Shown: positions 9,237 to 64,000, counted from the first letter of the stretch. The stretch is DNA of 64,000 nucleotides from Yuukianura sp. NJ FZ-2021 (GCA_046563655.1 CM102284.1:7998001-8062000), one strand, 5' to 3'. Made by a program: numbers and translations. Notes: generated by a model not told the origin, from the letters alone.

Positions 9237-11705
9237 ATGTCAAGGTAAGAAAAACTTTACATTTTTTAAAAATACTTTGAACTTGAAGTGCTGTTTTAAA
9301 ATTTTGGTGGTTTTATTTTTGAGGAGTCGTTACGACGGAATGTCTTTTCAGCAGCGTGATTGTCTTTCTTGTCGAAGTTGTCCCTGTCCACCTCCTCCTG
9401 GTGGTCCATCCGAGGGAACAGGGAAGCAGCAGTACCAAAGTGGATGTGTCCCAAGATACTGCGACATTTTAGATGCTGGCAAGTACATTTTAGATACTGG
9501 CAAGTATCTCAAAACAGTATTTTAACATTCATGATTTACTAATTGCAGGAGTGGAAGGGAATCCAGAGATGCTGCAGGACATAATCAAGGACATGCAATG
9601 TGTTTTAGAAAAACTGTTTGGAAATTCCAAGAACATGGAAGGACGAAACAAGGGCCTTCTCGTAAGTAAAACTGTAATTTTTTGAACTTTCGGAATTTTT
9701 TTTATTCTTTTTGAAATTTTTTGAACCTTTTTGGAACATTTTGTTACTTTTTAGAGCAAGATCGCTGCTTTGAAAGAGGAACTAGCAAAATTGGAGGAGT
9801 GTAAAGCCCTACTGCAGAAGGAGCTGTGTCGTATCCAGGGTGAATTGATAACAGCGCAGAAAGCGTATGAAGATGAAGTGGATCAGCGTCTGTGCCTGGA
9901 AGAAGTGAATAGTCAACTGAGGCAGCGATTGAGTCGACTGGAAGCAGCGGCTGAAATTGATGCGAAAGAGAAAGATGAGTTGGCTGCGTGTATTTTGGAG
10001 ATGGAACGACGCTTGAAAGACGCTTACGACATGATCGAGTGCCTCAAAGACGAAAATGCTAAACTTCTGGCCAAACTAAGGGAACTGGAAGACTGGAAGT
10101 CTCGACAGGGAAACAACAACAAGCTAAACAAGGGACTTTGTTCGCAGTTGGAAGAGGCACTGGCCAAGTGCTGTAAGTCTTCCTCTTCACAAAATTTCGA
10201 AAAATTTTTGAAACTTAAAAAAAAATTCCAGAATTGTAACTTTGATTTTTAGGTAAAGCTAACGAAGAACTGCAGCGTGAACTGGCCGCACTGCGCAAGG
10301 AACGCGACGACCTTCAGCAATGCATCGAAAATCTAAAGAAAGAACTCAAGCGTCTTTGTGTAAGTTCCTTGTTCTAAATTTTAAAATATTGAAATTCTAT
10401 TTCTATGGAGGGGCATGGATGACTCCAAAGATAAATTATTTTTAATTAATTTAAAGAAAAATTTTTTCTAAATAAAAATATTTTATTACAAAAAGAAATA
10501 TTTTTCCAAAAAAAAAGAAAGTTTTTTTCTTAAAAAGATATTTTTTTTATTAAAACAAAATTTTGTGCTGTAAAAAGTTTTATTTTTATATTTTTAAAAA
10601 TATTTTAGTGTCTGAACAAGAAAAAACATTTTTTTTTATAAAATAAGAATTTTTTTTCAGTTGAGCACATTTTTTTTTATTTTTGGCCGGAAATATTTTT
10701 TTTGTGTACCAATGTGCTGAAAAAAACTTTTTAAAACTAGCACATCACAACGTCGTGATTTCTGTCTTGGTTGCTGTAAACCAGACGTACGCTTTCTGTG
10801 ATCACACAATCTAAATAATACACAGTTTCCTTCCTTGTTTCATGCTATCATTTTAATTGTACTTATCATTAAGTCATTGTCACGAAACCCAAAGGAGCGA
10901 ATGTAAATAAGTCGTATGCTATGAGCGCGAAAACTTTAGAATGAGCTTAACTTAACTTTTTTTCAGCACATTGGTACACAAAAAAAAATATTTCCGGCCA
11001 AAAATAAAAAAAATGTGCTCAACTAAAAAAAAATTCTTATCTTATAAAAAAAATGTTTTTTCTTGTTCAGACACTAAAATATTTTTAAAAATATAAAAAT
11101 AAAACTTTTTACAGCACAAAATTTTGTTTTAATAAAAAAAATATCTTTTTAAGAAAAAAACTTTCTTTTTTGGAAAAATATTTCTTTTTGTAATAAAATA
11201 TTTTTATTTAGAAAAATTTTTTCTTTAAATTAATTAAAAATTATTCATCTTTGGAGTCATCAATACCCCTCCATATATTTCAAAATTCTGGAATTTCAAA
11301 AGTTCATTTTCTGAAAGTGGAAATTTTTGTTTTTAGGATGAATTTGAGCGAGAACGAAAGGAATGGGCCCAGAGACGAGCAGCCTACGAGAAGACAATTG
11401 CTGAACTGAAGAAAGCACTGGACGCTCAGACGCTGAAAAATCAACAAATGTGTGAAAAGTTGCACCGCGCTCTGACGGAACATCACACGGAAATGGAAAA
11501 AATGAAGAGTTCGGCTCAAAGTTTCTGTAATTCGTACAATCAAGAGAAAGCAGCACGGGAGGAACTGGAGAAGAAACTGAGGGAATGCGAAGAGCGGAAC
11601 CTCAATTCCGGAAGTTTCCGAGGAGCCGAACCGAGTTCGTACTCGTGCGGAAACTTCCGTCCAGGTTGTCGCCCTTGTGAAACGAACAACTTCACTTGTT
11701 CCTAA
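9237..11705 (+). CDS. Uncharacterised Cys-rich coiled-coil protein
   Basis: Exons 9237-9244, 9324-9478 (or -9499), 9549-9661, 9755-10172, 10253-10359, 11337-11705 join in frame; long E/K/L/R-rich heptad region with Cys/Pro-rich head (CLSCRSCPCPPPP) and tail (CGNFRPGCRPC). Confidence 0.75.
10406..11273. mobile_element. Foldback element with ~320-bp near-perfect AT-rich arms (TA flanks) in coiled-coil gene intron
   Basis: Left arm ~10406-10726 (TGGAGGGG..GATGACTCCAAAGAT..TGTACCAATGTGCTGAAAAAAA) is the reverse complement of ~10957-11273; ~230-bp spacer; TA at 10404-10405 and 11274-11275. Confidence 0.9.
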
Positions 11706-12681: not shown

Positions 12682-12926
12682 TACGAAATTAATTGCTCAA
12701 AAAGGAAGTAACAAGAACTAGCAAATTTAAAAAATTCATTGTTAAACCTCTAATGAACGTAAATGTACTGAAGTTTCAGTAAGTGGCTCACCTTCTCTAG
12801 TCTGTCCGCCTCACCTCGCAATGTCGCAATTAATCAACCAATAAGTTAATTAACCCAATTCTAGAATCAGAAAAGCAGTTTTGCTTTTGGTCTTAGTTTT
12901 TTCGAAAACCAAAAAACTGAAATTCG

Positions 12927-13171
12927 GGTTGAGGTAAGCTTTAACGACCGTCATTGTAGCCGCACAGTGTAGCCACTCCGCCATTTTTTGTGGCTACAAT
13001 AGGTGACTACACTGTGTGGCAACTTATGTTGCCACTTTAGGTTAGGTTAGGTTAGGTTAAAGTGGCTACTTAAGTTGCCGCTCAGGTGTAGCCACCCATT
13101 GTAGCCACAAAAAATGGCGGAGCGGCTACACTGTGCGGCTACAATGACGGTCGTTAATCCTTACCTTGACC
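12927..13171. mobile_element. Foldback MITE with central (TTAGG)4 and 8-bp TSD
   Basis: TSD GAAATTCG at 12919-12926 and 13172-13179; ends GGTTGAGGTAAG / CTTACCTTGACC; ~110-bp inverted arms built from TGTAGCC/GGCTACA units; (TTAGG)4 at 13037-13056. Confidence 0.9.
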
Positions 13172-13198
13172 GAAATTCGAATGAATGAATTGCATTTA

Positions 13199-13432
13199 CA
13201 GTCGAGTTTCCCTTTTATTCCATTTGCCAAATACAAAACAAATTGCAGTTGGACTACACTGGGGTTAGAAAATCACATGAGTCTGAAGTCAAATTGTCAT
13301 TGGCAATTCCCCAATTTGCCATTTGGCGTTTCATTTTGCCAGTTCACCGCCAATGTACGGGTGCGAGTTTTGTACTTCTCAATTGTATTTTGTTTTGTAT
13401 TTGGCAAATGGAACAAAAGGGAAACTCGACTG
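13199..13432. mobile_element. 234-bp Tc1/mariner-type MITE (TA TSD), same family as 2531-2764
   Basis: TIR CAGTCGAGTTTCCCTTTT..CCATTTGCCAAATACAAAACAAA and its reverse complement; TA at 13197-13198 and 13433-13434. Confidence 0.9.
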
Positions 13433-13956
13433 TAATTTTCAATTTCAACTTTTATTTTCAAAATCTTTGGTTTCGCGCCATTTCAATATTTTGACCTTGA
13501 GATTTTCTGAATCCCGCCTCCCGGGAAAATGTTCTAACTTTCATTTTTTTAAAAATTCATAAAATTTGTCGAATTTCTTTCGAATTTCGTAAATCCAGTG
13601 ACTGCACTTTCCTTACAAGTAGGAGATAAGTCTGAAAAAATATAAAAATATTTAAATTCTACTAGAAGTTTAACAAATATTTCGCAATACATCTACAGAT
13701 CATCGTATTATCTCAGAACCCGATTTTTTATGTGAGGTATTTGAAGAATTTGAAAAGTTTTTCTAAACTGCACGCGGTTCAAAACGTATTTGAATTGAAA
13801 CACTGGTGGTACTTTTGCATGCACTTTGCATCCAGCTCACCTGACATGCGCATGTGAATGGAGTGCAGTTTGGAGAGTAGGAAGGAACAAAAGTAAGTTT
13901 GAGTTGTTGTTGGCAGTTTGGAAAGGGAAAAACAAGAATTGAGTATCAGTTGAAGA

Positions 13957-15484
13957 CATAGTTCGGCACTTCTGGCGCGCTCCCAAACACCCGATCCCCG
14001 ATCTTTTGCCTTTACCCCGCGATCTTACTGGCTGCGATCCCCGCTCTTTGGGCCTACCTCGCGATCTTACTGGCGGCGATCCCCGCTCTTTGGGCCTACC
14101 TCGCGATCTTACTGGACGCGATCCCCGCTCTTTGGACCTACCTCGCGATCTTACTGGACGCGATCCCGATCCTTGGGGGGTTTACAGCGCTCCCAAGCGA
14201 TCTTTTTCCGTTCCCCGATCCCAAAAAAATTGACGAGTTAACTTTTATGTAATTGAGCATTAATTAAAGACGCAAGTAATGAAAAGAATTTTGGGTTAAT
14301 TAATTTATTGTTATTAAGTATTTATAAATACTTAATAATAATTAATACTTAATAAATACTTAATAATAATAAAAAAAATTAAGTTTAGAAAACTGAAGGA
14401 CTCCCGTAACAAACTATGTAAAAAAAAATTTCACCGTGTTGCTCATTTCCGGTGAATTTGTATTCATAATAATTATAAATTATCATATAGAAGGACTCGA
14501 CTTTTGGAAAAAGTCAGGATTAGGCTAACAAATTCACTACAGTACATTTTCCTTTTTTATGGAAATTTAAAAAATCCCAAATTATTGATTTTTAAAAACA
14601 GCATCACACCTTCTAACTTTCTACAGAAGGACTTTTGGAAAAAGTCAGGATTAGGCTAACAAATTCACTGGTGCATTTTCCTTTTTTATGGAAATATTAA
14701 ACGTTTGAAACGGACCGACCGACAGTTCTTTTTACAAATTAGCACTTTCAACTCGAAGTTATTTTCTAGGCAACGACATTGGCCCTTCTTCGTCTAAACC
14801 CCATAATTCTTGTTCAGCATACTTTATTTAGTGTAATAAACAAAATGTCGGCCACATCCCAGCCGTTCCATAAATAACCAAGGTTTACCAAGCACGAAAT
14901 TTGTGTTAGACAATTATGATTGTCTCCGTCCAACAATTTAAATTTGAAACGTACTACTCGCCACTAGGCCTAGATAGCTCACTATGCTGAATTCTGATTT
15001 TACACAGTCGAAGTGACAGTACAGAATACGCACATCGGGTAAAGGAGAGGAACATGGCTTTACTAACTTTATCAAATTTCCCCATCCCGCTGCTTTCTCG
15101 TTTTGGTCAAGAAGAAAAAAACGTCAGAGGAATAGTCAGACCCAATTTTAAAGTTAGCAAAGGAGGAAGTCTTCGCCCAAGCCCTGATTCTCCTCCCTTA
15201 TCTCACCTCGCCTCGGCACTTATGTTGCGCTCCCAAACACCCGATCCCCGATCTTTTGCCCTTACCCCGCGATCTTACTGGCCGCGATCCCCGATCTTTG
15301 CGTCTACCTAGCGATCTTACTGGCTGCGATCCCCGCTCTTTCGGCCTACCTCGCGATCTTACTGGAGGCGATCCCCGATCTTTGGGCCTTCCCCGCGATC
15401 TTACTGGAAGCGATCCCCGATCTGGGATCGGAGATCGGGGAGCGCAGGATCGCTGGCTTGGGATCGCGAAAGTGCCGAACTATG
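13957..15484. mobile_element. 1.5-kb non-autonomous hAT- or P-type element with 42-bp tandem arrays
   Basis: Perfect 15-bp TIR CATAGTTCGGCACTT / AAGTGCCGAACTATG; 8-bp TSD GTTGAAGA at 13949-13956 and 15485-15492; 42-bp unit (CGCGATCTTACTGG..CGATCCCCG.TCTTTGGGCCTACCT) arrays at ~14018-14170 and ~15268-15420; no transposase ORF. Confidence 0.9.
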
Positions 15485-16980
15485 GTTGAAGACTGGAATT
15501 CATTCAGTTACATCGGAGGAAACTACTAATTAAACTTAATTATAAAGTTAAAGTGTCCATTAATCATCAACTAAAGTTAGGTAAAACATCTGTTGAGAGG
15601 AGAGACTGCTCTAAGTGTGATTTAGTGCACTCCGTTAGTACCACAAGCAACCAGTACCAGATCAGTGACCCAAGGAGAGATAAAGTGAACGAACCACTTC
15701 ACAAAATTGACATCATCTTCTGACTCTCCTGATTTCTGATTCTCATCTCATCTCGTCGCAAGCAAAAACAACCACAAACTGAGAAGGTATGGATTTAAGT
15801 TACACTAGTTTTAAGTTCTGTGTAGATTTGAGTATTTAGTAAAACCTGAACTTAGTTTTAAGAACAACGGGTAATCGTACGTCGCTAAAAACGTGAACTT
15901 CAATTGAATTTGAGATTGTCGATAGCTAAATGGTAAATAACGAGTTCTAGTAGGGTGAAGCAGGAGAGGAAGCGAGGAAGTATGGAAAATGGTGATTTTG
16001 AAGATTATAATTTCATAACACCTTGAGATGACTTGAGTGTGAATTCAATTAAGTGTGAAGTGTTAGCCAAAAGAGATAAGTTTTAATCAGGCAGAACCAT
16101 AGTGTGGGAAACTGAGAATTATTCCACACATCACTCACAATTTTTATGGTAAAACTCCCTAGGTGAGAGGTGACCAAAGACCAGCAACGGACTCGGACAG
16201 CCTCACTTTATCAACTTCGGGATTTTTTTAGTACTTTATCCATAAATGGACTCGGTTGATGACTAATTCTCTTTTTAACTGATATCTGTTCATGTTCATT
16301 CCAGGCACTCCAGGGATTACGCTTTTTAGCAAGGCCGAGATAGAAGTTGTGATAAATATTGGGATTGGGGATCAGGTTACACTTCAAATTTTCCTTGTGG
16401 TTTCAAAAATACATTTTTCTACTTGATTTTTTGATAACTTCCGGTGTTTCTTGGTAGCGGAAATGAAGTACGTGTGGAGATTTACAATTGGGAGGAAAGA
16501 CGTTTAGTTTGTCGTGTTTTAGAAACCGTTCCAAAGTTAGCTTACACTCCTGCGGTATGTACCTCATAAAGTGACATTTGATATTTTGTGTTTATTTTTA
16601 GACACGCGGAAGCCGACGACGATGATGATGTTGGTGGTGTAAAGTCAACTCCCATTTGCAGTATTCTGTAAACTACGGTGACACGGTGACAGATGGAGAA
16701 CATGAGATTGGACTAAAATAGCAAAGCAGAAGACGGAAACAGTTTGCTTTTGGAAAAGTTTTCAATTTCGACAACTCAAATCATCTGTAACTGTTGGATT
16801 TCAAAATTAATCAATGGGACAACTTGACGGAAGATGAAAACAGAACCTGTCTACTAAAAAGTCGACGTTTGTCCTTCAGTTTCTGTGAAAGCAGTGAAGT
16901 GTAACCAGGAAAAGGTGACGACAAGGACACCAGCGACAGCAGTCTAAAATTGTCATCGTCAACTCTGGAATTTTGCGAAG

Positions 16981-24223
<7,243 letters not shown>

Positions 24224-25378
24224 ACTTCCTAAAGTTCTAAAACTTCTAAAATCGAAAAACTACAAAGAGAAAGAGGATGAAAATGGCCGTGATTCGACGG
24301 GTTTTTTGTAGAAAAGTGAAAATTGATGGAAATATTGTGTAAAATGTTGTCCGAAAGAAGTTGAAAATCGTGAGTTGTTTAGTGACGTTTGGTAGAGAAA
24401 TATTTTGTGGAAATGGGCGAAAAAACGAAATTAATGGCGAAGAGGTTGAGTATTTTTGGTTTTTCGGACAATCGTACTGCGTTGATTCTTGAAAATGTTA
24501 TCGTTTTTGAGCATTCTCCCATTGCCCTTGAAGTAATAACTTATTTTCAGAAAAGTTAGGGTAACCTAACTAGCGTAACTTGAAAACAAAGTATTGTTAA
24601 CTACTATAAACACCGCAAGTACTACTTGCCAGTACTAGATACTTGCCAGTAGTACTGCCCAGTATGTACTGTGCCCTCCTAAGTGTTGAGATACCTTGAT
24701 ATCAGTTGTTAATTGTGCCTCGAGATTATTGGTGACTTGAGAAACGGTTATTCGTTCAAAATGGGTAAAAATGAATTCATTATTTTAAAATTTAAAAAGT
24801 ATTCAAAATACTAATGTTGGAATTGAGCTGAATTTAAAGTTTAAAAATCGTATTTTAAGGAGGAACTGAGAAAGGGGAGAGATGAAGAAAAAGCTTTAGA
24901 AAAACTGAATTAGTGAGTTGAGAAGCATTCCATTAATTTAAAGTTAATTAGCAAAGTTTTCCTGAGGTCAATTAACAGTTTGTGCAGTTAAGTTTGGTCA
25001 ATTATCGTGAGAGTGAACTTCTCACACACAGGAGTGACATGTTTTTTTTTAAGTAAATGGAGTAAAGATGAGTTTAGCAACTAACTTGTTTCTGTTTAGC
25101 TATTTAGCATGATTTGAAATGTGTTGATTTTGTTGTTTACGATTAATTAATTAATTTAATTTAATTAATCAATTAAGTCCTACACGCTCCTGTAAGTGAA
25201 TTTGTAGGGAAAGTTAGGAGTAAGTTGACCTTAAAAAGAGAAAGGAAATAAGAGTAATAAAAGTAAATGACGCCCTGTGCCATTTCCAATGGGTTAGAGG
25301 TTAGATATGCTGGAAATACTGTCAGATGTGCTGGAAATGCTGGAAGTACTGGCAGATGTGCTGGAAAAATATAGATAT

Positions 25379-26605
25379 TTATTTGATAATCTTGTAAATA
25401 TTGATAGCTCTGTCTTCACCGACTGAGCATAGTTTGGAATTGGATCCCCAAGCTACTCCCCAAACTTGGTCAGTATGTGCTTCTGCGAAGACGTTCAAAC
25501 AGGCTCGAGTGGCCAAATCCCAGAGACGAACGGATTTGTCTGAACTGGACGAAGCGAAGGTTTTGCCGTCTGGAGAAAATGCTACGCTGAGCACCCACGA
25601 ACTATGACCTGAGATCGTTCCGACAACTTGGAAGTCGGATCTGAAATTTAGTACGTTAATTAGTATGAGGTAATTTATTAGTTAAATCGTAGTTCAATTG
25701 TATTCAAGTGTAGGATCGCATTCAGACTTACAAAGCGTAGATTTTGATGTGTTTGTCATCTGACCCTGTCAGAAGTAGTTTGGAGTCTGGAGAAAATGCA
25801 AGAGCTCGGACAGGCATCGCGTGACCTTCTAATGTTTTCGAATGGTTTCCTTCTCCGTCCAACAAACTGACAAGTCCATTCGAACTGCCACAAGCAATCC
25901 ACCTGTAAATCAATAATTGAAGTTGAGTTAGTTTAACATAAGTTTGTTTACGTTAGTTTTAACTTTGTAATTCTGGAACTCACTTTCCATCTGGACTAGT
26001 GGCTATGCTCAAAGCCATCTTTTGCTTGGTGTCCAGTGACTTCTCTTTCTTGCCCGAGTCCACACTGAACATTTCTACTTTCCCTTCAGAATTTCCGGTA
26101 AGAACGAACTGAGAATCGCGTGTGAATTGGACTGTCCAGGACTCCAGTGGCCCACATTCAATCTTCCTGATTTGCTCACAAGTGGCAAAGTCCCAGAGAC
26201 TAATATTGTTGTCCAGTGAAGCCGTAGCGAATGTCTTTCCAGATGGAGCAATACATACTGACATCACGCCAAGATTGTGACCGAGGAGAGTGCGCTCCAG
26301 AATCAACTCACCATTGTCGTATTTCCAGACCTATGAACAAGTAAACCAATTTCATAAATGCTGCGGATATTATTGGCAAAGCTAAGTTGAATTCTGGTTA
26401 ACCTTAACAGTATCGTCAAGTGATCCGGTAACTATTCTGTCCAGGATGTCTCCAGCCTCATTCACAGCATTTCCTTGACCCCAGTCAACTGCCCAGATCG
26501 CCTCTTCATGTGCTGCTTCGTGACGTTTCTCAATCGAATACTGAAAACCACCACTAATTAAAATAACATTCATTCACTCAATTCTTAGCATAAATGACTT
26601 ACCAT
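25379..26605 (-). CDS. WDR61: WD repeat protein 61 (Ski8; SKI/PAF complex subunit)
   Basis: ATG-only first coding exon 26605-26603, then 26540-26403, 26330-25984, 25902-25732, 25640-25379. [63 protein letters not shown] are WDR61-type repeats. Confidence 0.93.
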
Positions 26606-26815
26606 AGTTTAAGGATTGATTAAAGCTTAGTCCTCGCTGATCTCGGACGACTCTCCACAAATAAGCCTAAATAAAAACGATTAAATCAACTAATCACGAC
26701 TTAGTATTTAGTGAGCCAATTCAATTTGCAACAACTGTTGTGCTTGTCAAATCCAAATGTCCAAATTTCCGGCAGTCAATGAGTCAATTGACAGATTTTC
26801 GCGCTAGCTACACTA

Positions 26816-27025
26816 GGGGCGAGGTAAGGCAGAGGTGGCGTGTGTTAATCCTCCATATCCCCTCCGGAACTCCCTCCAGTGGTTTAGACTTCGCTGTTGC
26901 CAATCATGTAACCTAACCTAACCTAACCTTAAAATGAATAGACAACAGCGAACTATAAACCACTGGAGGGAGTTCCGGAGGGGATATGGAGTATTAACAC
27001 ACGCCACCTCTGCCTTACTCCTGCC
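26816..27025. mobile_element. Foldback MITE with central (TAACC)4 and 8-bp TSD
   Basis: Direct repeat CTACACTA at 26808-26815 and 27025-27032 (boundary ambiguous by 1 nt); ends GGGCGAGGTAAG / CTTACTCCTGCC; ~80-bp inverted arms; (TAACC)4 at 26909-26928. Confidence 0.88.
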
Positions 27026-27407
27026 TACACTACTAGTACAACGACGGATGTTTCAACTTATTGCAATTCAATAGAGAAATGTATGAACAGTAAACGGAGG
27101 AGTAGCGTTTTTAGCAAACACAGGAGAAAATAAAAAAATTTTGCAACAATTTTTGCATTAAAATTACGTAGAATGTTGTTTTATGCCTTGACCCCAGCGA
27201 TAGAGTTACAGAAATCGCCGCAAAGATGTATTTTTTAGAAATGTTCTAAAATAGGAAAAAACATTCGGAGAGTTTTTGAAGTGTATTTTTGCATTGGGAG
27301 ATAGGCGAGAGAGCAGAAAAGTAGATCGGAGATTATACTAAGCGAAGAGGCGAGATAGGGCTTTTGGCCTTGTGTGCTTTTGTATGAGGAAGATAGGCGC
27401 CGTTGAG

Positions 27408-28141
27408 AAGGATAGGGAAGGGAGTGTAGCCTTCCTGCTTCGCATAATCTCCTGTCAACTTTTCCTCTCTTCTGCCTATCCCCCAATGTTAAACTTCAGT
27501 TCAAAATCAGAGTGGGTGACAAGGGTGGTGTGCAGTAACTCCTACTCCAACCACACAAATTCAGAGGGTAAGGATAGGGAAGGGAGTGTAGCCTTCCTGC
27601 TTCGCATAATCTCCTCTCAACTTTTCCTCTCTTCTGCCTATCCCCCAATGTTAAACTTCAGTTCAAAATCAGAGTGGGTGACAAGGGTGGTGTGCAGTAA
27701 CTCCTACTCCAACCACACAAATTCAGAGGGTAAGGATAGGGAAGGGAGTGTAGCCTTCCTGCTTCGCATAATCTCCTGTCAACTTTTCCTCTCTTCTGCC
27801 TATCCCCCAATGTTAAACTTCAGTTCAAAATCAGAGTGGGTGACAAGGGTGGTGTGCAGTAACTCCTACTCCAACCACACAGATTCAGAGGAAGGGAGTG
27901 TAGCCTTCCTGCTTCGCATAATCTCCTGTCAACTTTTCCTGTCTTCTGCCTATCCCCCAATGTTAAACTTCAGTTCAAAATCAGAGTGGGTGACAAGGGT
28001 GGTGTGCAGTAACTCCTACTCCAACCACACAAATTCAGAGGGTAAGGATAGGGAAGGGAGTGTAGCCTTCCTGCTTCGCAGAATCTCCTGTCAACTTTTC
28101 CTCTCTTCTGCCTATCCCCCAATGTTAAACTTCAGTTCAAA
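27408..28141. repeat. 162-bp tandem array (~4.6 near-identical copies)
   Basis: Units start at 27408, 27570, 27732, ~27891 (12-bp deletion) and 28044; very few substitutions between copies. Confidence 0.95.
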
Positions 28142-32447: not shown

Positions 32448-35400
32448 TCAAACATTCAGCTCCTCAAACGGCATGAGCTTCTGACTGCTGGAGCTGCCTG
32501 GAATGTGACAGGCGTGACCTCCACTGCCTTTGTGCTGTAACGTTGAAAAGTTGGAGACGCTTCTGGGTGGAGGCGGTGGCTTTGGTAACGTTGACATGGA
32601 CACTCCAATGCCTCCGTTATTCGTTCTAAGAGTGCCGATTCCAAGCAACTGAGATGCTGAGGGGTAGTGTGACCCTTGACCTTGACATTGGTGGTGGTTC
32701 ATCTGCGCCTGCGTGGGACTCAGGAGGATGCCACGATGGTGCTGCGTCGACGCAGAAGTGGTCGTAACTGGAGTTCCACTTGGACATTGGTGGATTCCGT
32801 AGTCAGTCCCAGTCTGGGAACAAGTGGAAATGGAGTTGGGCCCCACGTTGTGCCCCACCTGACCCACGTTGGACTTCAGCAGTTCCGGTGGCTCCGAATA
32901 CTTCCCGCGCTCCTCAGAGTCTCCGCCTTGCGAATTCTTGAGTTGCTGAGCTCGTCGTTTGTCGCGTTGGTAGTAAACCAGGGCAAAGATAAACACGTTC
33001 AGAATCAGCAATGCACAGCCTATACAAAAGAGGAAAGGATTATTTTTTTATATAATAATAATATAATAATTTGTATTCATTTATAATAAAACTAGTGTTA
33101 AGCGTTTTATTTCACACATCGCTCAATTTGAAGTCGACGCTGCTGGAGAAAGTGCTTTGGATCTCGTAATTTTTTCTTCCTTTCTCTTCTCTCTTTCGTT
33201 TTTTCTTGTTTGAATTCTTTTTCAAATTTTCTTTGAACCTTTTTTTTGAGAGTGAAAGGAAGTGAGAACTTTTTAATTTAAAGTGTCCACGTCTAACACA
33301 TGTTGTGAGCCTCTGCTTTTGACATGGACGCCGCCCTACTTTCTCCCGCTTCTTTTACTCAAAAACTTAATTTAGTCTAACATTTTCAAAAGAAAAAGTT
33401 TAAGACCCCCCTCTCCTTGGTTGAAGATCTTAGACCCCCTCCCCCCTTCCTTGGCTGAGAAGGGGGGGGGGGGTTCGTGATACCAAACTTACCAATTGCA
33501 ATCGTGACGGAAAGCGCCGTGGAGTAAGGAGCGAAGATATTGGACACTTCGAAGACCGTGGCATTTGAGCCGTACTTGTCCCTTGACCCACCTTGACCCC
33601 CGGTTGAATTCTTAGCTGAATACACTGGAGAGAAGCACGTGGTGGGTGGGGAGGGGGGCCCACCATCCATATCCTCAAGGTCACCCGCTCCAGGCCCACC
33701 CACCCCCGTTCCAGCGTCAAATCCAAGGTCAAACAGTTGGGGGTTTAGAATTTCGTCGTCTCCAACCACCGAATTCCGAATACTGCAAATTCAAAAATTA
33801 AAAGTCTTTAGTTCTAAATTCAAAAATTCCCAAAATTAAAAGTCTTTAATTCTAAATTCAAAAATTCCCAAAATTAAAAGTCTTTAATTCTAAATTCAAA
33901 AATTCCCAAAATTAAAAGTCTTTAGTTCTAAATTCAAAAATTCCCAAAATTAACAGTTTTAGTTCTGAAATCCTTCTGAATTTGGCATCAAACGCCTCAA
34001 TTAAAAAATTCATTTCCAAATTTCGAAAAGTTTTCTTATTCGAAAAACGTGAAAACGGGCAGTTACGGGCGTAGCAACCCATAATCGCCGAACCAAAAAC
34101 CGCCGCTCCAATAACCGCCGCTCAATAATCGCCGAAAAAATAACCGCCGCCATGCAACAACCGCCGCTAGGCAAAAACCGCCGCCCGGAAAAATCGCCGC
34201 TACAATAACCGCCGCCACCCAAAAACCGCCGCCATTCAGAAACCGCCGCCACACAGAAAATGTTCAATTCCAGTTGGTTCAAAGGACCAGTTGGTCCAAT
34301 GCCGATTAGTTCGACACAGAATTTGTTTATTTTCCCGCGCCGAAGGCGCGGTGTTAGGTTTGGTAAAACCGGCAATACTGATTACGTCTGTAGGTTCTAC
34401 CGTATGATTAAAATAGTTAGCGTATTGCTTTTGATGTTGGTGGGTACAAATGTACCGGTCCGATTGGTTGGTAGGTTCAATTCCATCATCGGCACAAAAA
34501 TTTGGACTGGTAGGTACTGTCTGGTCGCCCAAGTTTACTTCGACCGATTTTTCAATGTGTCAGGTGTTCCTGGCGGCGGTTTTTCATGGCGGCGGTTTTT
34601 GCCTAGCGGCGATTATTGTTGCGGCGGTTCTGCCTAGCGGCGGTTTTCCCCTAGCGGCGGTTTTTGCATGGCGGCGGTTATTTTTTCGGCGATTATTGAG
34701 CGGCGGTTATTGGAGCGGCGGTTTTTGGTTCGGCGGTTATGACATGGAACCGTTACGGGGACATTACTTTTAATTAATTTTCTCTCTCTCACTTTCGCCC
34801 CCTCCAAAATGACATGATCAAAGAAAAGACGGGAAAAGTTAAGCAAAATCGGTTTCGATGGGCCATCACCTTTTAGTGAAGGGGAGACTTAGACTCAGTA
34901 AGGGGGGGGACTTAAGTGTTAGTCGTTTGGCTTAATGACCAACAACAAATTAGGAGGCAAGGGTCCCTGACACTTGAAGAAAGTGAAATTGAGCCCCCCT
35001 CCTGCCATAACACTTGACGCCTAAAGAAAGTTAGGGGAAATTAGGAAGAGAAAGGGCCCCCTCTGGTGACTCTCAATTTCCGCCTGTCTCGGCTCATCCC
35101 TTAAACCTAGTCTAACAAAACCTAATCCCCAACCATCTTCTTTCTTCAAAATTTTCAAAAAGTGAGGAAAAAAGTCATAACTTTTGAAGTTCAACTCTTT
35201 TTCACAAAATCATGGCTGCTTTCACCTCGTTTTCCTCATTGTAAACCCTCAACGCCTCAAAAAACAAAATTAAAAACGTCTCTATCTCTTTCCTTTTTGC
35301 AAAAATAAGGTTGACCTTCACCACACGATGTTTTTTGAAGTTTTGAAATTTGGCAGGTTCAAAGGTTGTGTTTTTTTTTGAAAATTATGTTTTCCAAAAG

Positions 35401-38400: not shown

Positions 38401-41400
38401 CTCGTTAATCACTGTGGCTAAAATTTCGTTCAAGTGGAATCTATAGGAATTACGAATCACTGTTCTCAGAATAGCGTCTCTCCGCTGACCTTCAAAGCCA
38501 AAGGTCAAGTCAGCCTGAAATAAAATTTTGAAATTTCGATTTCGAAAAAATTTGGAAAAAAAAGTGTGATTTTTGAGGAATTTGAAAAATTACCTCACTA
38601 AATTCTATCATTTTCTCCAAGGAAGACAGTCCGAATAGCAAGTCATACTTTTTGACCAAGTCTCTCTTTCCCATTGAGTCTTTGCTTGTCTATCAAAATC
38701 AAGAAAAAGTTCTTCCAAAAAGTGAAAATTTTGAACTTTTTAGTTTTTTTTATACTTGTTCGTTTTTTTGAAGTTACCTTAAAGTAAGGTTTGATCACAA
38801 TTCCGTCCATCGTTGGGCCAAACTCTACGGAAAACTTGTTTGGAGCAAAATTGGAAAAATTTGAAAAGTGTTTCGTTTTGAGGCACTCAAAAATTGGATG
38901 TTGATGACTAGATTTCCCTTGTGGGTGAAAGGACGTTCCGGTGGCTGTGGGTCCTGGCAGTGGGGCAGTCACGTTCCCACCACTCACGGCCCCACCGGAA
39001 CTGTTCGTGGGGCTTGGTGGGGCCGAACAGTTGAGACTCTGGGCCAAGGCAGTAGCTGCTGCAAGTGGGTCGGCTACTACTGCCCACGGGGCAAACGCAG
39101 AACCACCGATCAGGATGGACCGATGAAACAAGCCTACAACATGTCAGTCAAAGTAATTGGATTGCTTACATTTCAACATAAACATAACCTTAGCCTAACG
39201 TAAAGTTAGCCTAACATAACCTAAAAGTTAGCCTAACATAACTTAATCGATGATTAGGTTAACCTTAAGGGCCCTTCACTCTCGTACTAAATTCACAAAA
39301 CTTTCTCTCTTCGTTAAATTCCCAAAACTCTCCGTTTTCTCTCGATTTTCATTTTTTTTCAAATTCGGGGAAAATGTAAGTCCGCCCTCGAACCAAATTT
39401 CTAAAATTATTTGGCAATCTTGTTCTAAATTTTTTTTTCTAAAAATCTCCATCTTGAAGAGATGATGTTCTAAAAAGAAAAAAGAAGGAGAATATTTTAT
39501 AGCCAAAAGCTAAACCTCATCACATCCTTACGTCAGCTCCACAAAATTTTCGCTGAGAAAGCTACACTTTCTCTCCTTCAAAATCAAACGCACGAGGAAA
39601 CTCTCAAGTTTCAACCTCATTTTTATTCCCCAGAAACCAAACTTTTTAGAAAAACATGGAAAGTTAAACCTCCTTCTAAAGCCAAAAATTTGTTTTTGAA
39701 TACTCTCCCGTAATCCAGGAAAGGAAAAATCGGTTCAAAAGATTTTCAAAATGTAAAAAAGCGGGTTTTTAATAGGGTGTAGTGTGCATGTCCCCATTTC
39801 CTCATTAGAGCTTTACGAATTCTATCTTTTCCAATTTTCTTTGATGATCACTTTCACTTTGAGTAACGACGTACCAACCTCCTTTCTTTTCTCATAACGA
39901 TCAACAAAATTTCGAAATTGCCTCTAACCATAATTTTACAAAAAAAAAAAAATCGAAAAGTTAGGCTACTCCACTTTTCATCAAAAAATCTACAAAGAAA
40001 CAGGAATATCGCAGCCGACTTTGCACAATCACTAATCATAATTCCAGTGGTCTCAAAATCCCAATAAATTAAACTAACGAGAGTAACTAAAAAATAACTT
40101 TTGTTCAAAATGTTTCCAAAAACAACTTTCTAAAAAAAAGTCACAAACCTTTACACTAGCATTCTGATTGAGGTCAAAGGTCAAGACTAAGTTTTTACCT
40201 GGCATCACAGCGGGCGAGGACATGAGAAAGTGAACACTGGCAGCACCGGCTTCGTATCCTGAAAAAAATTGAACAAAGTCAGTTTTTTCGTGGTTCTATG
40301 CAATACGGTCAAAAACAATTTGATCAAAAAGTGAAAACGATCAAACATAAAATCTAGCAATGACATTTTTTACTTTTTGATCAAATTATTTTGACGGTTT
40401 CGCCTGCTACAGTTTTTGGTTGGATTAAGAGTTTCGAAATTTGAAACTAGCCAATCAGGAAGGCGGATTAGGATGATAGGTGAACTTTTTAGCCTGGGGC
40501 GTTTGAAAAGTAAGTGTTTCGTGGCTTACCCATAAGCGTAATGTTCTCAGGGTCTCCGCCGAAGAACATGATGTTCTCTTTGATCCAATGAACTGCTGCA
40601 ATTTGATCCAGCAGTCCGTAATTCGACACTTCCGCCTTCCTGCCCGGAGTTGTGTTCAAGTTAAGGAATCCTACAACATTCAAAGTATCAAGTGAAGCAT
40701 TCCAAACTTTTGAAAAAGTCCGGGCTTTTTTGAAAATGCCCTGGAGAGAACGTCAGAGGTCAAAGTTACCAAGGACACCAAGGCGGTAATTGAAAGTGAC
40801 AAAAACGATGTCTCCATAGGCAGCCAACACAGTTCCGTCTACTAAATTCCCACTGCCCCATGCAAACTTCCCTCCGTGAATGTAAACTATGACTGGCTTC
40901 AGTTTCGGATCTGGACCTGCAATTTGGAAAATTACGCTATTTCAAAAACACGTAGCCAAAAACGTAACTTTTGCTTATGTTAGGCTAGTTTACGTCTCGG
41001 TTGAGAGAGAAAGTCAAGGGAAAAGGCATGATTCGATTGGACATGTTAATGGTCCAATCAAACTGTCCAATCACTGAGGCTTTCCCTTGTGCCTATTTAG
41101 TTTTCACGAGAGAAAGTACTTGCACAAACAGTGGAGGTAAACTGGTCAACAGCAATTTAGTCGACACTTGTTTGGTCAAACATATTCGTGGTACAGGGTG
41201 GCCCCTAGAAGTTTGAACCCTCTTTCTTTTCCTCTCACTATTGTCATAAGAAACTCATGTGAGAGTTTCTCTTTCTTTCACTTGGGTACAGAGATTAAGG
41301 GGCCACCCTGTATAAAGGTTTAACAACAACCAAGAAAGAAAACTTTATTTGGCTAAATTGCTGTTGACCAAGTTGTTGTTGGTTGTGTTGCGACTGTTGT

Positions 41401-44400: not shown

Positions 44401-47400
44401 GCTCACTTTGGAAAATGGCGGGAGAAAGTTGGAATGAAGCCGTTGAAGTGGAACTTAATTTGAAATCATAATTTAGCGTCAGATTGAAAACATCTCCTCT
44501 CTTTTGTTTATGAAATTCAAAATGGATGGATTCACAGATGGCGGGTTTCCCAGAATGGGAAAACAATAGAACAACTTTACCCCCCCCCCCCTTTCGTCTA
44601 ACCCCTCCCCCCTTCCGTTGGAGCTAGGGGGGGGTCACGAATTACTTTGAATGCTAATTCTACTAAAACTCCCAATTTTGGTAGCTGTTGCTCTGAATTC
44701 GTTACAGAACCTTCAAAATTCAATTAAAGGCGTTCCAAATTAAGTTAATTTGTAATTAAACATGCAACACTTGTAACTTCTTTAACCTCTTGAGTACCAA
44801 ATACAACAAAAGTTGCAATTTTTTAAATCCCTTGGAGACCAAATACAACTTTTGTGTAAAATTTTTGCACTCCCACGTGGACCAAATACAACTTTTGTGA
44901 AAAATTTTTGCACTCCCGCGGGGACCAAATACAACTTTTGTTGCAAAAGCAAAAAAAAAGGCACGGAGACCAAGTACAACTTTTGTCGCTGTTACGTTTT
45001 CTTCAATAATTGTTACGAGCCAAAAGATGATTTCCGTTCAGCATATCATCTAGGGATTTGGATGAAATTTTAACCAGTTGTTAGCGTCAATAGTGAGATG
45101 AGTTTGGCCAATTTTCATGACACTAGAAACGATAGGTCACGGAGCGTAAGGGGTCAAAAGTCACCGTGTCATCCTATTCCGACCTTATGCAAGTAGCATA
45201 TCGTTGCAACGGGCTTGACCTCCGGATTCAGAAAATATGTACTATATGTTCCTATCTACGACGTATGACAATAGAAGTATTACGCCGTGGAGCCAAAACA
45301 GAGGCGATAGGGACACACGAGTGAGTAAGTCTTTCTGAAACCGGTAAATCCGGGAAAATAATTGACCATCGATATTTTTGAAACTTGACATGATAAAAGA
45401 TACTACCAAAATGGAATTTTCGGCTACTGATTTCGACCTTTGACCTTCAAGATGGCGGCCAGGTGAGGGCAAATTTGGTAAAACTAGCTTCTTTGGGCCA
45501 AGATAACTCATGAACGAAGCCACATATCGACATGGGGTCAACCGCAAATTGAATCCCTTAGAATTCTCCATTTTTCTTGTGGTGTCTCTAGGTGCCCTTG
45601 ACCTTAGAGGTCAAGGGTCAGCCCCTATGACAACGCTTGGCAAGTAATACTTCATTGGAAAGCTCTCGTCACGCCGATTTATAATATATATAGGTGTAGC
45701 GACTGTCGAGTCGCCCGCTGACCTACAGAGGTCGAAGTATCCGTTGGAGGGCCGTAAGGTCGCTCTGTGACCTCTGTCGTTCAGGAGGCGACTCGAAAGT
45801 CGCTACACTTATATATATTCCGAATATTTTCGTTATCTGGCGTCATAGATAGCAACTTATATGTTTTCTGAATCTTGAGTTCGAGCCCGTATCAACGATA
45901 TGCTGGTTGCATAGGGTCGTCATAGGGTGACACGGTGACCTTTGAACCCCCATGCCCTGTCACCTTTCGCTTCTAGGGGCTCAAAATAGACCAAAATAAT
46001 CGCACTATCGACCCTAACGGTTAAAATTTCATCAAAATTCGACCAACTATGATTTTATTAGGATTTTGGGCCATACCCTTTCGTTGAAATATGAAAAATA
46101 TGAAACGATGAAAAATACGGGTCAGACTAAAAGGTCAAAAATCGGAGCGTATGTTAACAGTATGGGAAAAGGGCAGAATTTTATGTTACGTTAGAATGGC
46201 TTAAAGGCCAGAATTCCTCCGCTCGTGTGAATGCGAGAGCTTCCTACACTCCATCCGCTCATGAAGCTCTCAATTGAGCTAAAAACCAGAAATTATGCGC
46301 TCCGACCGCTCATATGGACTAAAAAATTTGTCGAAAATCTGTTATTCTTGCACATTTTAGATTTCATCGGAGTACCCTAAGCGACGCTGCGGCGCTAAGA
46401 ATTTTAATTCTTGTATGGGGAGCAGTGGGGAGAGGAAGAAATACAAATTCCCACCAACTCCCAATTTCCATGCCCTGGTGTAAAGATCTCAAGCTGTACA
46501 CACTCCATTACGCTTCAAGCTTCATATGGCCTACCATTATCCGCCTCTCATAAAACGGAAGAGTACGCGTAGACAGTAATTGTTTATATAATGGCCGAAA
46601 CGCATAAAATCCCACAGCTATATCACTAATTGTTGACTTCTAGGAGTGACCTATTGCATGTCAACTTTAGTATTTATGACGTGTGGGCGCCAGCAGGCTT
46701 TACCTGACAAATTTGTTGAGATTTGTCCGGCTTAAATTAATTTTTTCCGGACAAAACTCAATTTCGTCCGTCCAAACTGGATATTATACGGACAAAAGTG
46801 GCATTCAGATGGCCAAAAAATGCTCAAAAGAGACAAGTTCGGCTAAAAACAAGTTTTATATAAATTTATAACGTCAGTAAGCATTTCCCGGTGTGAAAGC
46901 CGATTACAAACGAATACTAGGTTTTGACCAAATTATTTGCTAATCCGTACCTATGTGATATGGGCTAAAAGGCCGGAAATTGTAGCGTCAGAACTCCGTT
47001 CCAGCCGTTCATTGGGCGAAGAAGCAGTAAATTTGTTCGGAAAACCGGTTCGTTGCTAAATATTCCGGAGCAAAACGGAAGCGATGCAAATGTTATGGTT
47101 TTATTTGACTTATAATAAACATGATGCCTAATCATCGTGACATAATCTTTGGTTGTTAGAACCGTACCGTTTCGTCGAAATGGAACGGTATTTTGATACA
47201 CTAACTAGTTAGCTAATGTAATTGCGAATAACACCACTTTATAAATAAGCTTTAGTTATGCACAAAAGCCATACCGTTTTGTCGAAACCAAACGGTATCT
47301 TGATACACCGATAAGTAAATTACATCACTATAATTACAGCCTGTACTTAAAGTTTAACTTATTTCCAAAAACCCTGCCGTTTCGTCGAACTGAAACGGTT

Positions 47401-50400
47401 TCATGATACACAAACGAGTTAAGCAGTTAAGTATAATTAAAGTTAAAATTCACACCTTAACTTACTTCTGAAACTACCGAAAACCATTTCTAAGATTTAT
47501 TTTGAAATTTTTTCTTCATTGATCTCGACCAATGATTAACAGAAGTTAAAGAATTCTTTGCTCGCTTGTCTATGAGGGTATCGTTTCGGTACGGTTTTTG
47601 TGCATAACTAAAGCTTATTCCTAAAGTTGTAACTGTTATTCGTAATTACGTTAACTAACTTGTTAATGTATCAAAATACCGTTCCATTTCGACGAAACGG
47701 TACGGTTCTGATGACTAACTAGTATGTCACGATGATTAGTTATTATGTTTATTATAATTCAACAAAACGTTTTGCTTATGTCTTGTTATGATACCAGAAC
47801 ATTCGCATCTGTTCCGTTTTGTTCCGGAATCGAAGGGCGACAAACCTGACAAAAAGCTTAAATACATTTTTAAAAATATTAACTCGGTCCCAGCAGGATT
47901 TCAACAAAAAAATACGAAGTCCCTGGGAAATTTTCGAATTTTTCATTTGAGTCCCCCCTGGCGACCATCAAAAAACAATCAATTCCCCCCCAAAAAAACA
48001 ACAAAAATTAAATTGGTACTCAAGAGGTTAATTAAAGTGCAACCAAAATTAGTCCGAAGATCTACGTAATCATTGCCAAAATTTGGAAACCATTTCGGTA
48101 GCACTGTAAACACTATCCGGCTTTTCCAATTTTCAAAATTTGTTCCGCATTTCATAATTTTTTATGAAAAATTGGAAAACTTTTTTTTTTGTAAAAAGTT
48201 TAGGAAGCCGTAACGACCTATTTGTTAGGAAGTGTGTGTATGGTTAGGTTTTGTAAAAAAGAGTTTGAGTTTTTGATGTTGTGGTCCCAGCAGGGGAAAG
48301 CCATCGTCTTGCTCCTGCGGATGATAAAAGATCGGCTCTGATGATCTTCTGAGTGCTAAATTTTGGCCATTTGTAACCTCAACTTCAGCCGCTCTCAAAG
48401 TAGTAAAAACGGAAGTTAGACTATGGTTTTAGGTTGTAACCTAATAGGCTAAGAGACGTGTGTTCACTCTCCACTTTCTCACTTTCTAGGCTCGACGCTC
48501 GAGGTGGTGAAAAGTTTGTTAGAGAGGAGTTGCATGATGCATGAGGTGCCAAGAGACGCAGGGCAGGCACTAATCATCCCATCACACACTCACACTCTAA
48601 TACTTCCTCCACATCACTCTTTTTCAAAAATGTCAAAGTTCAAGTTTCAAAAAAATTAGGATTTTGGGAATGGACATGATGAGGTTAGAAGGCAGGGTTT
48701 CAGAGCAGGGAGATAACAGCTCCCTGGTGAGAGCGATTCCTCCGAAATGGTTAGATGTGGGTTCGAATCCAACTCAAGCCAGATATTTTTATTCTCTTTC
48801 TTTCAAAATATAGGCGGTACAACTGTGCAGTGTGCATCGATTTGACACGACTCACATCCTTCATCATTACGAGAAATGCAAGTTACCCGCTTTGTCTCTG
48901 CTAAGATTTCTTTTCCAAGCCGGTTTTTGTTGGAAGTAGGAACAATTTTCGGTTTTCATAACTCTTAAAATTAAGTCTTAAAATGTTGAAACGAAGTGCT
49001 AAAATTGTGTTGTGGTTGTTTTTTGTCCTTGTAATGTCCACAATTGCTATGATTGTTCTCATGAATGAACAGTGTTTTGTTGGAGGTTGGACAGTGGACA
49101 GAGGAGGTTTAACCACCACTCCATTGTGTTTGACAGGAACACCGAACTTCCCCAAAAACGGACTTGTTTACCCGGATTCCGCTCCTGTCCGTCCCTCCGG
49201 AATTTATTTCATTTTCTCTCTCCCCGGCAAAAACTTTTCCCTCCAAGCCTCCAAAACACAAAAACCCGCTCTTTTTTTCTCTTACTTCAAGTGAACTTAT
49301 AAGCAAGGAGAAAGTTTTATTTGGGTCAGGCGGTTAATGTTTTTCAAAAAACCATTTACTCAAAACAACTGCGTAAATCAGAGTCTGGGCAAAAAGAGGC
49401 CAAGGAGAAAGTGTGTGCGTAAATTCAGAGGAATAGTTTAATTCCCATTAACTTTAAACCCTCTCCTGTCTTTTTCAAATCGTTTGGAACCTAAAGGACA
49501 GAAGAACGGAACATTCTGAAGTGTGGCGTTTGAAGTTAACCGATTTATACCTTAGAGTAGTTGGATTTATGAGGGAGAGATGCTTTCCCCCTGCCACCAT
49601 CTGTCTCACTCTCCTTCTCATGTGTAAAATATAATGTGAAAAGGAATGTCTCTCGAGAACCAAGTCTTCATTCCACCAAACAACAAGATCTATTACCCCC
49701 GCCCCCCCCCTCTTTTGCCCCCCACCCCTCAAAAAAAAGTAATGCAAGTTTTGTGAATTTTCAAAAATTCAAAAAGTGTGGGCTTTTCATCAGATTTGAT
49801 TTTGTCACTAACGAAAAGTAAACTCATTCCAAAGAAAGAAAAATCACAAATTAGTTAAAAAAATCCAATTTTTTTTGGTGTTTTATGTAATTTGATGTAA
49901 ATTTTATGTAAGCTAGATGTCGTTTATGTAATTGGTGTCTGAGTGAAAGCGGAATGTCTTGTTGGCCGTACATGACAAAATTGTTTGCTGTTTACTTTCG
50001 GAAATCAATTTGGAAGCATTGGAGCGTTCAATTGAGTAAACCGAGCACCATTAGCGGAGAAAGCAATTTCATGTTTTGACAGAAGTGAAGGTGAAGGTAC
50101 CATTTGAGGTACCAAGCAACTGACAATCAAGGTACCCTTGGTACGCCAGGGGTAATGAAAGGAAGTACTCAAGTTTAAACAAAGTGCCTGGGACCCTTCA
50201 AGTCATCACCTTAACAAGGTACCGTCAAGTACCCACTTTTTTCACTGACTATAATGACAGGAAATCAACCCGCGAAAAGTTTCAAATTTGAGCCCACCAC
50301 TTAGCATGATTAGCCCAAAACGCTAAGTGAAAAGCGTGAGTTGGGCCACTTTCACTTCCAAACCCCTTTTGTTCTTTTCTGATCATGTTCAAATGGAAAC

Positions 50401-61832: not shown

Positions 61833-64000
61833 TACGCACTTTCTCCCGCTTTTTTTGAACTGTAGAATATGTGAGTAAGTTTGACTCGCGAGTGCTGAGT
61901 GATATCAGCCTTCGTTTTTCGTGTCTAAAAGGCTCTTTTTTCCACAAAAGAATGGAAGTTCAAAATGTAAAGTGGGAAATTCTTTTGCTGCGTCTTGTAG
62001 CATATAAATCATTGGGGAATAAAATAGGAAAGGAAGAAATTCTCCTCTAAATTCCTCTTCTCGGTTGAACCAAAAGTGAAAAGGAAATGCGTTTTAGAGC
62101 ACCATGCTAAACATTCCCAAACTTTCTACTTTTTCCCTTTTCCACACTTATTTCTTCAATCCAAAACAAGAAAAACGGGGTGACTTGACTTGCAACCTTT
62201 TTTTAAGCAAGAGAAAAATGGCGGGAAAGAAGTGGTGAAAGGCATTTTCCTTGGTTACGAAAAAGTTTCATGACTATTTTGGAAGGGCACGACTTTTAAA
62301 TAAAAAAGGAAGAAAAAATTTCACTTTTTAGCTGTTTTTTCGAAATGTATTGAGTTAGGTAGAAAAAAAATGTGTGGCCCGTGCTTTAAAAAATGTTAGG
62401 TCATATGTTGGGATGTTGGGGTTGAAATTTTTCAATTTTTCTTTTCAACTTTCTGTTTTGCTCTCCTGAAATTTGAGTAGCGTTGAAAGTCAATTCTGCG
62501 AGACGAAGGGAGTAACTACAGTGTGTTTGAAAGGAGAAATGAAAGTGGTCCATCTTGCAGAAGAGGCATGACATTCCTAGCGGATGTCTCAGACTTTATT
62601 AGACTTCTGCCTAACCTAATGGTTAGGGTAACCTAACGGTTAGGCTAACCTAATGGTTAGGCTAAAAGTTAGCCTAACGCTTGTGAGCCTCCAATGATGA
62701 ATGTCTTCTTTCGTCAAATGTGAGTGAAAGTGGCAGGGAAGCTCCAGTCATGAATTTCCGTCAGCAGTCCACTTTTTGTGAATGAATAAACCCAGCTTCC
62801 CAAATGTACAGTACGGCCCGCATAAGTAACAAAAAGAACAAGGTTTGTTGACTTTTGATTTTCTTTAACAGGTTGAGTAATATTACATGTTTTTGGATTT
62901 TCCAAAAAAAGTATCTTTTGATTTAGGGGCATCGTAGTCGTAACAGCACAGCCATTTCTTTCAATTTTGCATTCGAATTCATACCAATTTTTTGGATTAG
63001 TAAGTACTATAAATTAGTACTAAATTTGTTTGTGTTTTTTTTGTTAACAAGAGAGCTAGTACCCAACCTGTAAAGAAAATTAAGTTTTCGTTGTCAAGGA
63101 ACCTTGGAAAAAGAACAAAGAGAAGGTGCTTTGAACAATTTTTTTCTCCGTTAGTTATTTCGGACCGCACTGTACATCCCTTTTTCTATTTGAAAATTCA
63201 GTGCACACTGCCTTATATTCCTAAAGACCTGGAAATTTTTAGAGAAGCCGTGGGATTCGAACCCACAACTACCACAGGAAGGATGGAGCGGGAAAGTGAA
63301 AGCGTGCATGACTCCTGCCGTCTCGTTACATTCCTCTGCAAAGTTGGGCGAAGCGCGAAAATTCAAAAAAGTGAGGTTTTTCCTTCCTAGAAAAAAGTAG
63401 GGTAGTAAGTTTGGACTTTGAGAATCTCACTTTTTACGTCTCGCGGGAGAAAGGAGATGATTGAATTCCAGAGCCACACAAAGGTTTTTAGATCGTCGGT
63501 TCGTTAACTTTTTCCATTTTGGAAAAAAAGAAAATTGGCATACGGTTTTTGGCGCTCTTTTCACCAAACTCGGTCGTAGTGAGTGTGAAATTTGATTTAA
63601 TTCACTCCTCCTGCCGTCCGCTACACACAAGGAATGGAATGCATATCATTTGCATCATTTCACTTTCACCCAAAATCCGCCAAAAGTGGAACTTATGTTG
63701 TTGTTATGTTGAAAGTTTGGAAGAAAAACTGAAACTCCGGCCATTCGCTTTTCAAATCGAACAAGACCACCCTTCTGTCGCTTCCCAAGGTTCCTTGACA
63801 ACGAAACGTTAATTTTATTTAACAGGCAGCGTACTACCTCGCTTATGGATAAAAAAGGAAAAAAAAACAGCAGAAATTGGTATCAATTTGTATGCAAAAT
63901 TTAAAAAAAAAATTGCTGTATTGTTATGACTACGATGCACTGAAATGAAAAGTTGCAAAATCGAAATAGGATGAGGTATTACCCAACCTACAGAAAATCA

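Follow-up and report, generated by a model that had tools for sequence, protein, structure and literature searches.

Foldback miniature transposons of two families share Merlin-like ends and an identical telomere-type core

[quoted passage not shown] Merlin elements, as described in a paper on them, have inverted repeats of 24–462 bp, target duplications of 8 or 9 bp and a conserved terminal GG with which all families start (PMC8101967). An account of the DNA transposon families of an aquatic crustacean names Merlin five times in its available text (PMC2884549). Here we describe two foldback elements, hereafter E1 and E2, in a stretch of 64,000 nucleotides from Yuukianura sp. NJ FZ-2021 (GCA_046563655.1 CM102284.1:7998001-8062000), the whole of which is referred to as the window. 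E1 and E2 are foldback MITEs of two families that share Merlin-like ends and an identical telomere-type core, and both families have been mobile recently.

E1 is a near-perfect palindrome of 245 bp (12927–13171) and E2 one of 209 bp (26816–27024). Each consists of two arms around a short core and is flanked by a target-site duplication, as follows, with positions counted from the first letter of the window:

12919–12926, no strand: left copy of the E1 target-site duplication, GAAATTCG, a perfect 8-bp duplication.
12927–13036, plus strand: left arm of the E1 palindrome, beginning GGTTGAGGTAAG and containing many GTAGCCAC/GTGGCTAC sub-repeats; contigs have loose ends exactly at 12927.
13037–13059, plus strand: E1 core, 4.6 units of TTAGG, including (GGTTA)4 at 13040–13059; predicted hairpin loop.
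13060–13171, minus strand: right arm of E1, its reverse complement beginning GGTCAAGGTAAG; contigs have loose ends behind 13164 and 13171.
13172–13179, no strand: right copy of the E1 target-site duplication, GAAATTCG, a perfect 8-bp duplication.
26808–26815, no strand: left copy of the E2 target-site duplication, CTACACTA, a perfect 8-bp duplication.
26816–26908, plus strand: left arm of the E2 palindrome, beginning GGGGCGAGGTAAG.
26909–26929, minus strand: E2 core, 4.2 units of TAACC on the plus strand, with (GGTTA)4 at 26909–26928 on the minus strand; within the predicted hairpin loop.
26930–27024, minus strand: right arm of the E2 palindrome, its reverse complement beginning GCAGGAGTAAG.
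27025–27032, no strand: right copy of the E2 target-site duplication, CTACACTA, a perfect 8-bp duplication; contigs that lack E2 resume at 27032 or 27033.

The arms of E1 are 90% complementary over 92 nt without gaps and 88% over 110/112 nt with gaps, and are composed of GTAGCCAC/GTGGCTAC units in both directions, whereas those of E2 match at 94% over 81 nt without gaps and at 86% over 93/95 nt with gaps. Folded as single strands, both elements are predicted to form one long hairpin with the repeat in its end loop (−113.2 kcal/mol and z −26 for E1, −89.3 kcal/mol and z −21 for E2). A first-pass annotation of the sequence had already described two palindromes with 8-bp target-site duplications and four telomere-type units in each loop; all of this holds, except that its E2 ended at 27025, one base too far.

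The two centres contain the identical 20-mer (GGTTA)4, on the plus strand in E1 and on the minus strand in E2, placed at most one base from the centre of symmetry, with 110/112 nt on either side in E1 and 93/95 nt in E2. A 15-mer of three TTAGG units, with at most one mismatch allowed, is expected 0.01 times per window and is found five times, four of which are the E1 and E2 cores. The sequence between the arms, where the repeat tracts were delimited by Tandem Repeats Finder, is almost purely telomere-type repeat, with little or no filler. In E1, the centre reads CCACTTTA + GGTTAGGTTAGGTTAGGT + TAAAGTGG, so that the palindrome reaches the pure repeat; the repeat is in phase at its start, following TTA, and has a TA overlap at its end. 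On its G strand, the centre of E2 reads TCAT TTTAA (GGTTA)4 C ATGA, with six further unpaired bases (TTTAA and C) between the arms besides the repeat.

The ends of the two elements read GGTTG, GGTCA, GGGGC and GCAGG, and all four hold GTAAG within their first 12 nt. The first-pass annotation gave every end an initial GG, which is found in three of the four, the right end of E2 starting with GC. The shared termini extend over 13 nt with two mismatches, CCTTACCTTGACC aligning with CCTTACCTCGCCC, and have the form GG..GAGGTAAG. Beyond these termini, local alignment of the E1 and E2 arms finds no similarity when scored against 500 shuffles (p 0.30–0.95), in keeping with the earlier description of the arms as unrelated, and a common descent of the arms is accordingly rejected. 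A scan of the window for ends of this form next to an 8- or 9-bp duplication recovered E1 and E2 alone. Both elements with these ends carry the core, as against none of the six other inverted-repeat elements, which have loops of 128–454 nt. A blastn search with a word size of 7 returned no further copy of either arm in the window.

The mobility of the two elements can be read from the contigs of four public runs aligned to positions 12700–27250, X1, X2 and X3 being from a single 'organism A' sample and X4 from 'organism B'. In X1, the summed depth of the bin that contains E1 reaches 23,444, approximately 100 times the value of about 245 in single-copy bins, and 45, 33 and 23 contigs of X1, X2 and X3, respectively, diverge exactly at 12927 into AT-rich flanks whose mutual agreement is 0.41–0.43, with more loose ends behind 13164 and 13171. 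Since these contigs leave E1 at its exact end and continue into differing flanks, the borders of the element are fixed and its family, which is high-copy, occupies many insertion sites. In X2, a further 14 contigs part from E1 after 12977, and there are several joints within its arms; the family is thus internally variable, like classical foldback elements. A foldback artefact of long reads does not fit the target duplications or the many independent flanks in short contigs, and was rejected. A 20-nt stretch of the E1 arm has no match in collections of metagenome, genome and viral contigs.

The summed depth at the E1 core (17,797) may include contigs from telomeres, and we therefore used only individual contigs as evidence for the core in other copies. 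At least three other E1-family contigs have TTAGG at the same position. One of them, present in X1, X2 and X4, covers the whole centre but is a unit shorter (five bases omitted at 13055) and has three further indels; the other two reach 13043 and 13047 within the core before jumping to the outer right arm. As other copies of the family carry the core, it is a family trait of E1, common to organisms A and B.

E2 is low-copy, its bin reaching about two to three times single-copy depth, and its presence is polymorphic. An E2-less contig of 2,590 nt in X4 joins 26803 to 27033 at a depth of 326, as opposed to about 5 for most X4 contigs in this region. In X1–X3, E2-less contigs join 26811 to 27032 at depths of 152, 181 and 42, the single-copy bins to the left of E2 (26308–26793) having depths of 244, 174 and 88 in the same runs. 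Because E2 is absent from contigs of both organisms, it is a recent, polymorphic insertion. The idea that both elements are transposon-type insertions is borne out by the 8-bp duplications, the divergence of flanks among the many E1 copies and the alleles without E2. Alleles that lack E2, of the kind proposed in the first pass as a check, are present in X1–X4, but their joints do not coincide with a clean empty site, a point to which we return below.

Telomere-type sequence is also seen in other arrangements. Near-palindromic GTTAGSCTAAC clusters, in which TTAGG faces CCTAA, occur at 39190–39246, 57497–57560 and 62610–62680, and also at 14516–14540 and 14646–14670; one of the clusters is a 17-bp tandem array of 3.2 copies. 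None of the three patches at 39190–39246, 57497–57560 and 62610–62680 lies between inverted repeats. One run contig joins a TTAGG run head-to-head with a CCTAA run, from 13059 to 26908 with one G between them.

With lengths of 245 and 209 bp, nearly all of it inverted repeat, and no coding capacity, E1 and E2 are almost certainly non-autonomous foldback DNA transposons of the MITE kind. Their assignment to a superfamily is less firm: judged from the ends and duplications in the sequence, the chances that they are Merlin-type are evenly poised. Mutator-like and Foldback elements have long inverted repeats with target duplications usually of 9–11 bp; the arms of E1 and E2, at approximately 95–110 nt, are long as well, but the duplication is 8 bp, and membership of this group is possible. 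hAT elements have an 8-bp duplication and short inverted repeats that begin with YARNG, and were set aside as a candidate class, as the duplication length fits but the E1 and E2 ends do not match YARNG. The shared termini and unrelated arms fit two MITE families that would be served by one kind of transposase.

Both elements lie next to genes, as the first-pass annotation had placed them. E1 lies upstream of a minus-strand gene that matches UBA and PTH2, at approximately 246 bp from its likely ATG, and E2 lies upstream of a minus-strand WD40 gene, 211 bp from the ATG; the orientation of the core is opposite relative to the two genes. Genes in the window have introns of about 60–110 bp. A kinase exon has its best named matches in insects and an amphipod, at no more than 81% identity, whereas a WD40 exon matches no close relative that bears a name; the organism is arthropod-like. 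Rfam gave no matches across the window.

E1 adjoins a Tc1/mariner-like MITE and an element of approximately 1.5 kb, so that the spacer in which it resides looks like a landing zone. The Tc1/mariner-like MITE is about 240 bp long with inverted ends of 52–56 nt and has two copies, at 13196–13435 and 2526–2769; the copy at 13196–13435 has TA flanks, lies 24 bp from E1 and falls in a bin of depth 12,398 in X1. The larger element, of 1,536 bp (13949–15484), has a 9-bp duplication, GTTGAAGAC, and inverted ends, (C)ATAGTTCGGCACTT, that are unlike those of E1 and E2. It holds two 42-bp tandem arrays (13992–14167 and 15242–15423) and, at 14158–14643, the deepest bin of the aligned region (397,819 summed in X1), and it is skipped by contigs of all four runs, from 13948 to 15485 with nine shared letters.

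Further afield, three larger foldback-type elements of 660–735 bp (10474–11208, 34080–34741 and 47100–47767) have arms of 134–184 nt and loops of 350–400 nt, with no TTAGG run in any of the three; the arms of the element at 34080–34741 are 17-nt CCGCCG-rich repeats. A tandem repeat of 162 bp, with 4.6 copies at 94% matches (27408–28141), starts approximately 380 bp to the right of E2. Between E1 and E2, depth spikes at 19990–20961 (up to 16,460 in X1) and at 21448–21933 (up to 3,903 in X1), together with joints that skip 21667–21810 with differing letters in between, hint at additional repeated or polymorphic insertions within or close to the kinase gene.

A pattern scan for bounded TTAGG cores finds at least 112 loci in metagenomes and six matches in prokaryote genomes. 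Among the matches listed, to which the following figures refer, most metagenome loci are degenerate telomere-like arrays. An inverted-repeat score of at least 25 is reached by the 120-nt flanks of 1 of 115 tracts (6 too short), and a score of at least 20 by the full flanks of 6 of 97 usable loci (15 too short), the top shuffle control scoring 15.5. Isolated TTAGG tracts have a flanking inverted repeat in 3 of 30 cases; as background, window positions do so in 19 of 634 cases, falling to 16 of 631 when E1 and E2 are left out. One metagenome contig, L023, strikingly resembles E1 and E2: its foldback measures 342 bp and has arms of 98 nt that match at 83%, ends GGGGAGC and GGGTAGC, 8-bp flanks that match at 6 of 8 positions and a centre of approximately 146 bp of degenerate TTAGG-like repeat. 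Another, L069, likewise combines GG ends with a direct repeat in its flanks. On the strength of these one or two cases, the TTAGG-cored foldback architecture may be wider than this genome. In five other loci (L002, L021, L028, L058 and L062; similarly L027 and L035), a bounded TTAGG tract is followed by a conserved sequence starting ATAGCTGTAT, which suggests a repeated element abutting telomere-type repeats in another organism.

How could two families with unrelated arms come to share the same core? We favour an account, to which we give an even chance as a whole, in which E1 and E2 are two MITE families mobilised by related transposases in trans and the core is a patch made by telomerase. 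The same or closely related transposases would cut and paste both families, recognising the shared GG..GAGGTAAG ends and making 8-bp target duplications. The centre of a long palindrome is where it breaks, and a spacer stabilises it. Breakage at the tip of a perfect or nearly perfect palindrome would expose a 3′ end with TTA or TAA as its last bases, to which telomerase would add about four repeats before the end was rejoined; alternatively, the process would start from a broken element end that is extended and then folds back and copies the arm. The patch would be inherited by the family, as an unpaired spacer would let the long palindrome be tolerated in replication. That the repeat is nearly the sole sequence between the arms is as expected from telomerase extension of a TTA or TAA 3′ end. 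TTAGG is the usual telomere repeat of insects (PMC10712496), and in mammals telomeric repeats are described as insertions at sites of double-strand break repair, with telomerase implicated (PMC2246262, PMC7215372, PMC8537989). Taken by itself, a telomerase origin of the (GGTTA)4 core seems plausible, if somewhat short of probable.

Several observations weigh against this account. The two cores have the same length and phase, which is what a selected or inherited module predicts and random telomerase addition does not, and the run contigs include no core-less palindromic relative that could represent the state before the patch. That TTAGG is the telomere repeat of the host would follow from its apparent arthropod affinity. 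An autonomous transposase with the same ends, which the first-pass annotation had proposed to look for, did not emerge from the window, in which none of the 114 open frames of at least 85 amino acids has a transposase domain; the superfamily assignment is thus one of structure. The right end of E2 starts with GC, and acquires its GG only if the border is shifted by one base, at the cost of one mismatch in the target-site duplication. The E2-less joints skip 229 (X4) and 220 (X1–X3) bases as opposed to 217 for a clean empty site, and sit on CTAG and ACTAG overlaps, with the sequence between listed as not known for the 220-base joint; such joints could represent footprints of excision, or small deletions, instead of the original site. 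Last, the enrichment of inverted repeats around bounded TTAGG tracts is weak, at most approximately twofold among the matches listed, and we therefore claim no general link between such tracts and inverted repeats.

The agreement in length and phase leads directly to a competing explanation, which we regard as rather doubtful, that one transposon lineage conserves the core as a functional component, inherited from an ancestor or exchanged between families and maintained by selection as the arms diverge. Selection could act on an intramolecular G-quadruplex formed by the four GG runs at the hairpin tip, or on a site for a protein that either binds telomere repeats or is encoded by the transposon. 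A conserved part would account for the same 20-mer, phase and unit number in two families with unrelated arms, for the functional terminus being the sole other part that they share, and for the restriction of the core to the two elements with these ends, as opposed to the six other inverted-repeat elements of the window. Four GG runs are also the minimum for a G-quadruplex fold, and the E1 core contains TAGG(TTAGG)3, an oligonucleotide described as a chair-type G-quadruplex (PMC2647293). However, length is not strictly kept, given one E1 copy with one unit fewer and two with truncated cores; the centre of L023 is long, degenerate and TTAGG-like instead of four units; and no faint homology is seen beside the core, in a sample of two elements. 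The same variation in unit number among E1-family copies is reminiscent of a microsatellite, and MITEs with internal microsatellites are known, which brings in the idea that the two cores arose independently by replication slippage of a TTAGG-like seed, their likeness to telomeres being coincidental. This is the least probable of the explanations considered: the 15-mer of three units has an expectation of 0.01 per window, pentanucleotide arrays rarely arise from nothing, and slippage would have had to place the same motif at the same length and phase in the centre of two unrelated elements.

A different kind of explanation, put forward in the first pass, is that the elements deliver a telomere-factor site together with inward-facing splice donors to promoters and are retained near gene 5′ ends. 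The positions of both elements, 211–246 bp upstream of minus-strand start codons, and the GTAAG at all four ends are in line with it, but we find it highly improbable. There are two cases, in a gene-dense window most of whose intergenic DNA is near a gene end, and the clustering of E1 with two other transposons points to a landing zone. The opposite orientation of the core relative to these two genes speaks against a delivered factor-binding site, and GTAAG sits in the conserved terminus, just where a transposase site is expected, which speaks against working splice donors. E2, being polymorphic, is not needed at the WD40 gene. A part in gene regulation would be of greater consequence than the other readings, but nothing observed here supports it.

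The telomerase-patch account can be extended to an arthropod class of Merlin-like foldbacks whose hairpin tip is written by telomerase, central breaks being routinely healed with TTAGG and the patch kept for replicability and transposability; a patch with four GG runs can in principle form a G-quadruplex. We consider this extension unlikely as it stands, but were it true, internal telomerase activity would leave a heritable and countable record in the elements. Telomerase-made cores would, more narrowly, be a natural record of invertebrate telomerase at internal breaks, so far argued mainly from mammalian genome comparisons, and would show a perfect palindrome becoming a stable, spreading transposon. 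If the core is instead kept by selection, it would amount to a functional component new to DNA transposons, in addition to their ends. Under either reading, the presence or absence of E2 makes the system testable in living strains.

Literature searches yielded no description of MITEs or foldbacks that contain telomere repeats, and the known systems each resemble E1 and E2 in part. Like Merlin elements, E1 and E2 have 8-bp duplications, GG starts (at three of four ends) and an arm length inside the range of 24–462 bp. They differ in being almost all inverted repeat and in the telomere-type repeat at their centre, and their membership is argued from structure, with no IS1595-type DDE transposase in the window; 'MITE' and 'palindrom' occur zero times in the available text of PMC8101967. 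Similar to foldback elements, they have long arms, made in part of short sub-repeats (the GTAGCCAC units of E1), and little or no middle segment, and arm length varies among E1 copies, as seen from the joints and loose ends inside E1. E1 and E2 are, however, far smaller than foldback elements and have a telomere-type repeat as their centre, and their ends and duplication fit Merlin at least equally well. With TBE1 and Tel-1 they have in common that a DNA transposon is physically joined to telomere repeats, but in the ciliate elements the repeats are at the outer ends, whereas in E1 and E2 they are central, the outer ends consisting of ordinary inverted repeats flanked by target duplications. 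The interstitial telomeric insertions of mammals, as far as the sources cited above describe them, are likewise short, pure internal runs with in-phase junction bases (TTA in E1), whereas the run in E1 and E2 lies at the centre of symmetry of a mobile palindrome and is spread by transposition.

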